IMG/VR virus record: IMGVR_UViG_2534681738_000015
Direction: 5' to 3' (one strand)
Source of the DNA: a virus
Lineage: Duplodnaviria; Heunggongvirae; Uroviricota; Caudoviricetes
DNA length: 9,353 nucleotides
The position numbers were made by a program. Shown here in pieces: positions 3,001-6,000 of the stretch; the stretch's first letter is position 1, and the number at the start of each line of letters is the position of its first letter.

Positions 3001-6000
3001 CAGTCGCTGAACAGTGGAAGGCGCGACATCAAGCGCTCTTGCCAGTTCCCTGATTCCAATATTCTGATCTTCCAGAATATCAGCAATAATTTCTCCAGGA
3101 TGAGGGGGGGTAAACATCGCCATTAGTGGTAATCCTCGTAGTTAAACGAAGCGGATCTGGAGTTTTTCCCTGTAGCACGGGCGAATTTTTTCAACGTTGC
3201 AAATGATGGCCTTATTTACACTCAATGGTTAATTCTTTCCTGTTAAATCCCTGTTCCTTTAAAATGTCTTTATATCCATTTTTACATAGGGCATTGGCTT
3301 TATCATAGCATACTCCCCATGGTGTAGCGGCACCACAGGCAATGATGTACTGTTCCTTTTCATCTCCGCGATTTATTTTCGTAGTGGTAGTGCATCCTGA
3401 TGTTGCCATGCAGAAAATTATCAAATAAAAGAACCTTGCTATGATGTTCATTATCGGATCTCTAATAGGTGCTGCAAGTGACACTATTCCCATACCTGGA
3501 GCAGTTTGTTAGTGTGGCACTTCATATGCCATGCAGATTAGTTCCGGGCGCGAATCTCAGAGCGAACCTGTGAAATGGAGTGCCCTTTGCCTAGGTTCTC
3601 ACGAATAGCGTCGAGTGGCGGCGCGGCTGAGTGTATTAACCACGCTTCCATTGCTTTGTCGCGTTCATTCAGTGCACGAAGCCCTTCACGAATAACTTCG
3701 CTTTCTGAAGCGTATGCACCGGAAGCCACACGGGCGCGCACCATGTCAGCCATTTCGTTGGTTAATGTAATGCTGAATTGTTGGGTTGTACGCATGTTAA
3801 ACCTCACTGAGTAGGATAGAACACTATTCGATGATAGCACGCCACTTGTTGACGACAACACATATCCGGGATTATATTCTTCGCACGGTCGAGTTGACCG
3901 TCGGGATTCGAACCCCGGATAGAAACCGCGACAGAGACACGCCGCGAGCGTGTTTTTTATTGTCGTATGCACGCGCACATCTGAATTATGGTGGGGCGTA
4001 TAGGGGAGCTGAAAAGCTCGCCGGTTGGTTTCCCGGTAGTTCGAACCCTGTACGTCTCACCACCCGATGATTCGAACCTAACGGTGGTGATAGTTTAGAA
4101 ACCACTCGAGGGCGTCATAATGACAACTCAAGTTTCTGTTGAAACACTCTCCACGATTACTTACAAGCAGATCCCCGTTATCACTACCGAACTTTTGGCG
4201 CACCTTTACGGCACAGAAGCTATTCGTATTCGCCAGAATCACCACGAAAACAAAGGTCGTTTCATTGAGGAAAAACACTTCTTCAAACTTGAAGGTGAAA
4301 CTTTACGTGAGTTCAAGCACAGAGTAGCTTTTAACTACTCTGTGAAAATCGCCCGTAACGTTCGCTCCCTCATCCTCTGGACAGAACGCGGCGCAGCCCG
4401 TCACGCAAAAATGCTCGAAACCGATCGGGCGTGGGAAGTGTTCGAAAAACTGGAAGACTGCTATTTCAGTCAAAAAATCCCAGAACAACTTCAGCTTCCA
4501 GAATCAACACTATCTATCAACTACCCTCTATCGTGGTTTTCAGAGCACCACCCCTACTCCATGATGAGCTATGTTGATCGAAAAACTCTTAACCTGGACG
4601 TTTCTGTACTCTTCGACATGCCAAGCCCAACCATGCGTATCCTCAACGAACTACACAGCAAGGGCTATAACGTCGATGCGGCTGTCGCTGAATTTAACGC
4701 CTTCAAACATCTGACGGAAGAAATGCGCCGCACGCTACAGGATATTTCAAGACTGTCAGATCGAAATTCCCGAAAAGGCTTCTCGTTAAGCCTGTAACTT
4801 CCCCTACCATCCCCGACATCCCGTCGGGGTTTTCATATCTGGAGACAAAAATTTGAAACAGATCGCTTTCTACAGGCGTTCTGGAAGGCCCGGTGCCTTC
4901 CGTGGGTTAAAAGAACGCGTCACCTGGATGATTCAGTCTCGTGGTCGTCCTGTTACTGGCAGTGAAATAGCAGAGAAATTTGGTGTTTCACTTTGCGAGT
5001 TCAACAAGGTAGCTCGCGGCCTGACAAAGGGCAGTAAGGTTGTGAAAATAAAGGCTTCAGAACCATTCACCACAGACACCGGAATCGTTGATCGCTTTTT
5101 CTCCCTCGAATCAAATCCTCGTCGTGACACACCTCGCTCACGCAATGCCGTTCCTCCATTCAGTCGCAGAAGCCGTGAACACGCAGCAAAAAACTGTCGC
5201 GAGGAATACGTGCAAAAGGCCGAACGCCGTCGCCGACTGATTAAAGCAGGACTTTACATTGATGAGTTTGAAAACGCGCTATGACGAAAAAATACACTCT
5301 CATTTACGCAGATCCCCCCTGGACATTCCGAGACAAAGCAACCGATGGTCAACGCGGTGCAAGTTTTAAATATCCGGTCATGAGTCTTCTGGATATCTGC
5401 CGCCTCCCGGTATGGGAACTGGCAGCCGATAATTGCCTGTTGGCTATGTGGTGGGTGCCTACACAACCACTTGAAGCATTGAAGGTTGTAGAAGCGTGGG
5501 GCTTTCGTCTGGTGACGATGAAAGGATTAACCTGGAACAAATGCGGGAAAAGACAGACCGACAAGCTGGTCATGGGTATGGGTAGCACCACTCGCGCTAA
5601 CAGCGAAGACTGCCTTTTTGCAGTGAAAGGAAATCTGCCTGAACGCATTAACGCCGGAATAATCCAGTCATTCACTGCACCGCGCCTTGATCACTCCCGC
5701 AAGCCGGATATGGCGCGAGAAAAACTTGTGCAACTTCTTGGCGATGTTCCCCGGATAGAACTGTTCGCCCGTCACACCTCGCATGGATTTGATGTCTGGG
5801 GTAACCAATGCGGAACACCATCCATTGAGATGGTTCCGGGTATTGTTAAATTTCTGGAGAAAACCAATGAGCGAAAAAACGACGTTGACAAAGGCATCAC
5901 CAGTTGAATTAAGGCAGTGCCTGGAAATCGCAAATCAACTTGCCAGAAGTGGAATACGCTTTGTTCCGATCCCGATCACAGCAGATACAGAACTTCATCT

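Follow-up and report, generated by a model that had tools for sequence, protein, structure and literature searches.

A promoter, two hairpins and a transcription terminator lie between two divergent protein genes in a 9,353-nucleotide (nt) stretch of Caudoviricetes DNA (IMG/VR record IMGVR_UViG_2534681738_000015; hereafter the window), which raises the question of what these signals serve. The original prediction, made from the sequence alone, was a + strand small RNA of about 70 nt with its own promoter and intrinsic terminator, possibly a regulatory or immunity RNA for the antirepressor-type gene downstream. All four features are present at the positions it had assigned. We conclude, with a probability of roughly 0.8, that the element is the IsrK small RNA of a c4/immI-type RNA switch controlling the antirepressor of a Shiga toxin 2a (Stx2a) prophage of the PA2 type.

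The window was scanned with the Rfam covariance models at their gathering thresholds, which gave three matches: isrK, C4 and tRNA-Arg(CCT). The match to isrK (RF01394), returned by the covariance-model search that had been proposed as a check, was full-length (model positions 1–77) and scored 53.0 bits (gathering score 50; E = 2.3e-9 for the whole window). The segment 3880–3960 folds with a z-score of −2.69 and is more stable than 198 of 200 shuffled sequences. The putative promoter in front of it, P_isrK, matches 10 of the 12 consensus positions of a sigma-70 promoter and is the joint best of 17 promoter-like sites in the window; 12.8 such sites were expected, so that the count alone is not significant. 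Transcription is predicted to start at about 3885.

The terminator of IsrK on the + strand was absent from the output of a consensus terminator scan. The probable cause is that A/G-U pairs can lengthen the stem into the T run and yield a 10-base-pair (bp) stem. A terminator look-alike on the − strand (3947..3926), reported by the same scan, was set aside: the fold and the Rfam model both give the + strand hairpin plus T6, and a − strand terminator is unlikely because there is no upstream − strand gene to serve before int at 6737.

The match to C4 (RF01695; 70.1 bits, gathering score 45) begins 25 nt 3' of IsrK. Folded alone, the C4 segment has a minimum free energy (MFE) of −44.2 kcal/mol (z = −5.40), and its MFE fold is the model structure, a 17-bp acceptor-like stem closing around two hairpins. 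The two segments that this structure leaves exposed, a' and b', each find two complementary sites in the window: b' is complementary to b1 and b2, and a' to a1 and a2. The a1 and b1 sites lie in IsrK, and the a2/b2 pair lies just upstream of the ribosome-binding site of the antirepressor gene. The known Rfam family, the C4 partner at 3984–4067, the logic of the a and b target sites and the probable leakiness of the terminator had all been missed in the original prediction.

The module was then compared with 13 diverged phage loci (69–95% identity) and the Gifsy-1 prophage. PA28 and Stx2_EH0337 are near-duplicates, and the alignment and the matrices described below contain 14 sequences: the window, 12 other distinct phage loci and Gifsy-1. 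The loci come from Stx1 and Stx2 phages, PhiR12_2 propagated on MG1655, phages of Actinobacillus, Hafnia and Yersinia, APSE-5 of Hamiltonella and an N15-like Ravinvirus. At all of these loci C4 follows isrK at a distance of 22–27 nt, and both lie upstream of an antirepressor-type gene; in Gifsy-1, isrK (79.3 bits), C4 (69 bits) and c4-a1b1 (48.1 bits) stand in this order upstream of anrP. In 9 of 14 loci (the 13 phage loci plus Gifsy-1), Gifsy-1 and PA28 among them, the 5' half of isrK is also covered by a match to the c4-a1b1 model (RF03163, "a1, b1 targets of C4"), a member of the C4 clan. This overlap identifies IsrK as the RNA that bears the upstream target sites of a c4-type antisense RNA.

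The signals at both ends of IsrK are conserved as well. In each of the 14 sequences a −35/−10 pair that agrees with the consensus at 8–11 of 12 positions precedes IsrK, with exactly 6 nt between the end of the −10 and IsrK position 1; at the 3' end, all 14 copies of IsrK close with a GC stem and six or more consecutive T. In phiSTEC1589, which is 94.6% identical, the similarity starts at window position 3848, i.e. at the −35 element; judged by these comparisons, the putative promoter is part of the conserved unit. The predicted RNA of about 70 nt with its own promoter and terminator thus corresponds to what appears to be a 74-nt IsrK.

These comparisons bear on the suggestion that the region encodes a protein, namely the 79-aa product of the overlapping open reading frame (ORF) 3831–4070, and that the hairpins are incidental. 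The frame is open in the window and is annotated as a hypothetical protein in one GenBank record (phage phi346, PHANOTATE), but its ATG precedes the conserved promoter and falls in sequence that phiSTEC1589 does not share, and stops break it in most homologues. It belongs to no Pfam or PHROG family and is not called in RefSeq, and the substitutions across it are compensatory for RNA pairing. A coding function is therefore highly improbable, and the earlier dismissal of this ORF was sound. The comparative alignment that had been suggested to decide the matter shows hairpins conserved with compensatory changes and a 79-aa ORF that is not conserved.

The covariation was quantified in the 14-sequence alignment. 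MAFFT misplaces the short hairpin 1 of the window and both terminator types; those columns under-report pairing and were judged from the raw sequences instead. For the intramolecular helices of IsrK and C4, 93.1% of the cells were paired, compared with 31–46% when the partners were slid by 1–3 columns; 15 pairs changed on both sides, and none of 500 shuffles reached the observed values. In IsrK, hairpin 1 was 96.7% paired with double changes in 5 of 7 pairs, and hairpin 2 has a conserved stem (85.7% paired). The terminator columns were 66% paired and are poorly aligned because two stem types exist. The stems of C4 were 99–100% paired, with double changes in 10 pairs; the 17-bp stem (99.6% paired) accounted for 6 of these, and in C4 hairpin 1 both sides had changed in 4 of 5 pairs. 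The aligned sequences are related, which is a caveat for the controls, although the slid controls and the distinct pair types still give a clear result.

Covariation extends to the pairings between the RNAs. Across the 14 phages, b1:b' was 95.9% and b':b2 100% paired, each with 5 of 7 pairs changed on both sides; none of 500 shuffles reached the covariation score, and sliding the partners reduced pairing to 17–50%. The a sites lie in length-variable segments and were therefore tested without an alignment. In an all-versus-all matrix of predicted duplexes, the cognate C4–IsrK pair ranked first in 14 of 14 rows (mean −29.3 versus −18.0 kcal/mol), and among the downstream leaders the cognate one gave the most stable duplex with the C4 core in 11 of 14 rows; the APSE-5 core was too long in this matrix, and its downstream-leader row is unreliable. 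In the three near-identical phages EH1910, ASU11 and EH1995, a', a1 and a2 differ in concert. The window copy is thus a member of both RNA families, has the module architecture of its relatives, and shows a three-way complementarity that has covaried.

Concerted change of this kind also argues against two other readings of the region. One is that IsrK acts mainly on the host, as an Hfq-dependent trans-acting small RNA (a "moron") that regulates chromosomal mRNAs like AgvB, AsxR and StxS. The Rfam family carries the name "Hfq binding RNA", the molecule ends in a Rho-independent terminator with a U tail, and phage small RNAs with host targets exist in enterohaemorrhagic Escherichia coli (EHEC); yet the exposed variable segments co-vary with the adjacent C4 and the antirepressor leader and are not kept as a seed for a host target, and no host target of IsrK is given in the IsrK literature examined. 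We consider this reading very unlikely. The other is that the region is a tRNA-derived remnant or an attachment-site scar, as might be read from its T-loop-like GGGAUUCGAACCCC motifs: UUCGAA occurs three times (3907, 4040 and 4071), in a prophage located at a tRNA-Arg gene. ARAGORN found no tRNA or tmRNA at 3880–4100, the only genuine one being tRNA-Arg(CCT) at 8102–8176, and in other phages UUCGAA is replaced at the same three places by unrelated, mutually complementary sequences. The motif is therefore a specificity determinant (the b allele) and not a T-loop; the remnant reading is refuted and retains practically no probability.

Table 1. Positions of the features of the IsrK/C4 module and of neighbouring genes in the window.
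Feature	Position	Strand	Basis or remark
ParD-like / ribbon-helix-helix gene	3538–3795	−	Pfam; divergent from the IsrK module
Sigma-70-type promoter P_isrK	3849–3878	+	−35 TTGACG 3849–3854, 18-nt spacer, −10 TATATT 3873–3878
IsrK-family small RNA, 74 nt	3885–3958	+	Rfam RF01394, folds, covariation
IsrK hairpin 1	3885–3901	+	Fold
IsrK hairpin 2	3902–3917	+	Loop holds target site b1 UUCGAAC 3907–3913
Target site a1 GAAACC	3922–3927	+	IsrK linker
IsrK intrinsic terminator	3937–3958	+	ACACGC 3937–3942 / GCGUGU 3948–3953, loop CGCGA, T6 3953–3958
c4-type antisense RNA (analogue of STnc1160 / P1 c4)	3984–4067	+	Rfam RF01695
Upstream ORF, 36 codons	3988–4098	+	Conserved AUGGUGG start at the 5' end of C4; homologous by position to Gifsy-1 orf45
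a' GGUUUC	4027–4032	+	Single-stranded, loop of C4 hairpin 2
b' GUUCGAA	4039–4045	+	Single-stranded, C4 junction
b2 UUCGAAC	4071–4077	+	Antirepressor (ant) leader
a2 GAAACC	4098–4103	+	ant leader
Shine-Dalgarno sequence GAGGG	4108–4112	+	ant gene
Antirepressor gene (ant), 225 aa	4120–4797	+	ORF6N N-terminal domain; regulated output of the module
tRNA-Arg(CCT) (argW)	8102–8176		ARAGORN and Rfam

The Gifsy-1 prophage has the isrK-orf45-anrP module in the same order: a promoter, a three-hairpin small RNA with its terminator, a 25-nt spacer, the C4-like STnc1160 starting with AUUAUGGUGGGG, and an ORF6N antirepressor. Identity to the window amounts to 59 of 74 positions in IsrK and 70 of 84 in C4, with no difference in the 33 nt at the 3' end of IsrK. 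The window differs in hairpin 1, which is 3 nt shorter, and in the a1/b1, a'/b' and a2/b2 segments. From Gifsy-1 to the window, UUGGCGU/ACGCCAA has become UUCGAAC/GUUCGAA, and UCACCG/CGGUGA has become GAAACC/GGUUUC, with complementarity kept in both cases. Unlike in Gifsy-1, the module has no antQ upstream and no isrJ downstream, and the C-terminus of the antirepressor is different; it lies near int/xis beside the divergent ParD-like gene, whereas the Gifsy-1 module lies beside Q.

Gifsy-1 IsrK is a mapped 77-nt transcript whose start has been determined in Salmonella (Padalon-Brauch 2008, PMC2330248), and its promoter drives transcription of anrP (Hershko-Shalev 2016, PMC4825925). The read-through RNA of Gifsy-1 is translationally inactive, as pairing with the middle of IsrK ties up the 3' part of orf45; when supplied in trans, short IsrK relieves this block via the upstream ORF, with a 139-fold activation, and STnc1160 is an RNA processed from the read-through transcript downstream of IsrK (PMC4825925). 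IsrK and STnc1160 are highly transcribed in lysogens. By analogy, this control of AnrP translation (PMC4825925) supports the regulatory or immunity role that had been proposed for the RNA in the window. Modelling of the window points in the same direction: when the 251-nt read-through RNA is folded, its MFE structure joins the a'/b' half of C4 to the middle of IsrK (−97.5 kcal/mol, compared with −85.9 kcal/mol for the separately folded modules), a pairing that corresponds to "structure A", the inactive fold described in PMC4825925.

Transcription, partial termination, processing, trans-activation of translation and an effect on induction are the steps that we infer for the window from Gifsy-1 and P1, and they would fit together as follows. 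The constitutive-looking sigma-70 promoter would start transcription at about 3885, and most transcripts would end at the 3937–3958 terminator as the 74-nt IsrK. The terminator is probably leaky by design: the fraction that reads through would provide the antirepressor mRNA as well as the c4-type RNA (3984–4067), which RNase P probably excises, as happens in P1 and P4. Pairing of a'/b' with a2/b2 in the leader would keep the antirepressor silent, and in cis the same segments would pair with a1/b1 in the IsrK part of the read-through RNA and lock it in an inactive fold. Free short IsrK, which carries the same a1/b1, would compete in trans for a'/b' on the long transcript or on processed C4. The leader would then be opened, allowing translation via the upstream ORF and of the antirepressor, and prophage induction would be favoured.

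The CI RNA of P4 acts by premature transcription termination of replication genes and not on the translation of an antirepressor. The P4 CI RNA/seqA-seqB-seqC system is otherwise the same in that a small RNA processed out of the leader transcript pairs both upstream (seqA) and downstream (seqC) of itself (PMC4825925). The module in the window could likewise work by attenuation only: C4 would bind nascent a1/b1 and enforce termination at 3937–3958, and the short RNA would be a by-product that does nothing in trans. The position of a1/b1 (3907–3927) directly upstream of the terminator (3937) and the retention of the terminator in all 14 homologues would fit this, and the Gifsy-1 study describes IsrK as a structural homologue of P4 seqA and raises attenuation as a possibility for STnc1160 (PMC4825925). 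The same study contains results that speak against it: IsrK supplied in trans raised anrP translation 139-fold, IsrK point mutants lost this trans activity while the same changes in cis raised basal translation, and the IsrK phenotype was enhanced and not suppressed when STnc1160 was constitutive (PMC4825925). Attenuation as the sole mechanism is thus unlikely, though it is the strongest of the alternatives. An effect of C4 on IsrK termination alongside translational control is possible, and the two are not mutually exclusive.

Several points weigh against the IsrK/C4 switch as formulated here. The IsrK score is just 3 bits over the gathering threshold, the homologues scoring 54.9–79.3 bits, and the c4-a1b1 model RF03163 (gathering score 46.7 bits) had no match in 3780–4200 even at E <= 10. 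The latter is explained by hairpin 1 being 3 nt shorter here; by its sequence, the window copy carries a1/b1, and with them the predicted function of RF03163, although it falls outside the membership of that model. The a2 site lies 5 nt upstream of the Shine-Dalgarno sequence and not on it, so that direct occlusion of the ribosome-binding site is not obvious. The upstream ORF is the mediator of translational coupling in Gifsy-1 and overlaps the anrP start there, while here it ends 21 nt upstream and in other phages it is not conserved; the coupling may therefore not transfer, and it is the least transferable part of the model. The work on Gifsy-1 leaves the target of IsrK as the long mRNA, processed C4 or both (PMC4825925). 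The literature searched gave no transcript, end-mapping or genetic data for this phage.

The upstream ORF has 45 codons and overlaps the start codon in Gifsy-1, compared with 36 codons here. Its stop codon UAG (4096–4098) abuts a2, G4098 being common to both, and precedes the ant ATG by 21 nt. The ORF ranges from 3 to 45 codons among the homologues; four sequences have no stop before ant, and in three of these the frame enters ant. With such variable length it is not conserved as a protein, and no PHROG family matched it. A further pairing is predicted in the leader, where GGUGGUGA (4083–4090), between b2 and a2, can pair with the 3' strand of the C4 closing stem, UCACCACC (4057–4064), at −14.9 kcal/mol. 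The GGTGG of the GGUGGUGA segment is invariant in 14 of 14 phages, as is CCACC in the C4 3' strand in the 14-sequence alignment. The modelled GGUGGUGA:UCACCACC pairing suggests an alternative helix that would compete with the acceptor-like stem of C4. Both this pairing and the upstream ORF would be in keeping with a switch.

An 11-nt inverted repeat (91% complementary) connects the promoter region with IsrK. One copy, TATCCGGGATT (3863–3873), lies within the P_isrK spacer, and the other, AACCCCGGATA (3911–3921), comprises the 3' arm of IsrK hairpin 2 and the linker. The spacer motif TATCCGGGG is also retained in Gifsy-1, PA28 and the Actinobacillus phage. The repeat could be a protein operator, or could allow RNA pairing upon read-through from upstream.

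Maturation of c4 from the operon transcript in P1 and P7 is carried out by RNase P. In these phages c4 RNA represses ant by pairing with a2/b2 (Citron & Schuster 1990). The immI systems of P1 and P7 (RF01695 and RF03163, clan CL00128) and the window share a processed-type antisense RNA located within the transcript of its targets; in both, two exposed segments match one pair of sites upstream and one downstream, the downstream pair precedes the gene leading to ant, and specificity alleles differ among related phages. Unlike P1, which is a plasmid prophage, the window comes from a lambdoid Stx phage, and it has a short non-conserved upstream ORF instead of an icd gene. Furthermore, the a1/b1 segment ends in its own intrinsic terminator, unlike in P1/P7, so that it is predicted to exist also as a separate small RNA.

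The immI region of P22 comprises mnt, arc and ant and the sar antisense RNA. The window resembles it in having an antirepressor under what would be post-transcriptional control by a small RNA and a divergent ribbon-helix-helix gene with an overlapping promoter region, a layout like that of mnt/Pant, but is unrelated in sequence to sar, Mnt and Arc. That the ribbon-helix-helix protein represses P_isrK is, by this analogy, pure conjecture.

The antirepressor gene is assigned by its Pfam ORF6N domain (E = 1e-19) and by the anti-repressor family phrog_1760 (E = 1.6e-122); over the N-terminal 134 aa its product shares 62% identity with Gifsy-1 AnrP (E = 3e-57). On the other side of the module, a − strand promoter-like site (3858..3831; TTGTCG-16-TATCAT with TG), whose −35 overlaps that of IsrK, would drive the ParD-like gene. 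A ParE partner for this gene was not found, the next gene (3212–3493) having no Pfam match. A link between the ParD-like gene and the module was sought through diverged homologues, but the gene occurs in 49 phage records that are all at least 86% identical and belong to one phage group only. In phiSTEC1589 the upstream slot is taken by a TumE toxin gene and a helix-turn-helix gene instead.

A 351-bp region at the IsrK/C4 locus is 100% identical in chromosomes of E. coli O157:H7 and other Shiga toxin-producing E. coli (STEC), where it adjoins argW and intS, and in the Stx2a-converting phages PA2, VT2phi_272, F765 and of the phi346 type (Oslovirus PA2). Some match to the region was found in 719 of 5426 complete E. 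coli genomes, 54 of which hold at least 80% of it, and many STEC genomes contain 2–4 copies of related modules. RefSeq annotates no RNA at the IsrK/C4 region. The copy in the window is unusual in three respects: it lies at the int-proximal end instead of in the nin region, it has the palindromic UUCGAA allele, and it stands beside a divergent orphan ParD-like gene.

Further observations concern the surroundings. The argW gene is flanked by two tyrosine integrase genes (6737–7981 on the − strand and 8302–9321 on the + strand), one being that of the Stx2a phage and the other the intS of a neighbouring element. The int/xis end of the phage resembles that of phage 24B. The ant of 24B studied by Fogg (2011) was considered as an equivalent and rejected: 24B shares the int/xis end but lacks the int-proximal module and has its ant before Q, so that those data are not transferable to the ant of the window. 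A second 225-aa ORF (2098–2775, + strand) is called "anti-repressor" in phi346 and a frameshifted hypothetical protein in RefSeq; it had no Pfam match, and the Rfam scan of the window found no isrK or C4 ahead of it. In three nin-region versions of the locus, sRNA-Xcc1 (RF02221) is matched above its gathering threshold at a place 3' of the antirepressor gene (L003 2262–2352, L004 2314–2397 and L009 1963–2046); the Rfam scan gave none in the window.

The components of the system are not new. The c4 and c4-a1b1 RNAs were described in 2010 (PMC2864571), the co-occurrence of isrK and c4 has been noted in APSE phages (PMC7313666), and Rfam lists isrK twice and C4 once in EHEC EDL933 (PMC5331693). 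For Stx phages, the literature searched on IsrK or c4 yielded catalogue-level mentions only, and no paper on the int-proximal copy of PA2-type Stx2a phages was found. The window copy is an unannotated instance of an already known system and not a new kind.

Comparison with the Nil2/Stx1-phage type (L004) showed the same a' allele, GGUUUCC, and a different b' (GUUCGAA in the window, ACGCCAA in L004); the cross-duplex is predicted at −18.3 kcal/mol, compared with −27.0 kcal/mol for the cognate one. Partial cross-talk between co-resident prophages is conceivable. A broader proposal is that the a/b sites of IsrK and C4 serve as address codes that allow or prevent cross-control of antirepressors among the prophages of poly-lysogenic EHEC, and that this copy, combining P22-style protein repression with P1-style RNA repression, sets the threshold of Stx2a induction and hence the toxin output; we regard it as a quite unlikely speculation.

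In RefSeq and GenBank, the records of these Stx2a prophages, which are of clinical importance, either lack an annotation of both RNAs or show a spurious 79-aa ORF at their place. Antirepressors have an effect on induction in related phages, and the production of Stx2 is itself coupled to induction. The three-way covariation of the a and b sites across 14 phages is a compact example of the evolution of heteroimmune specificity in RNA-based immunity.

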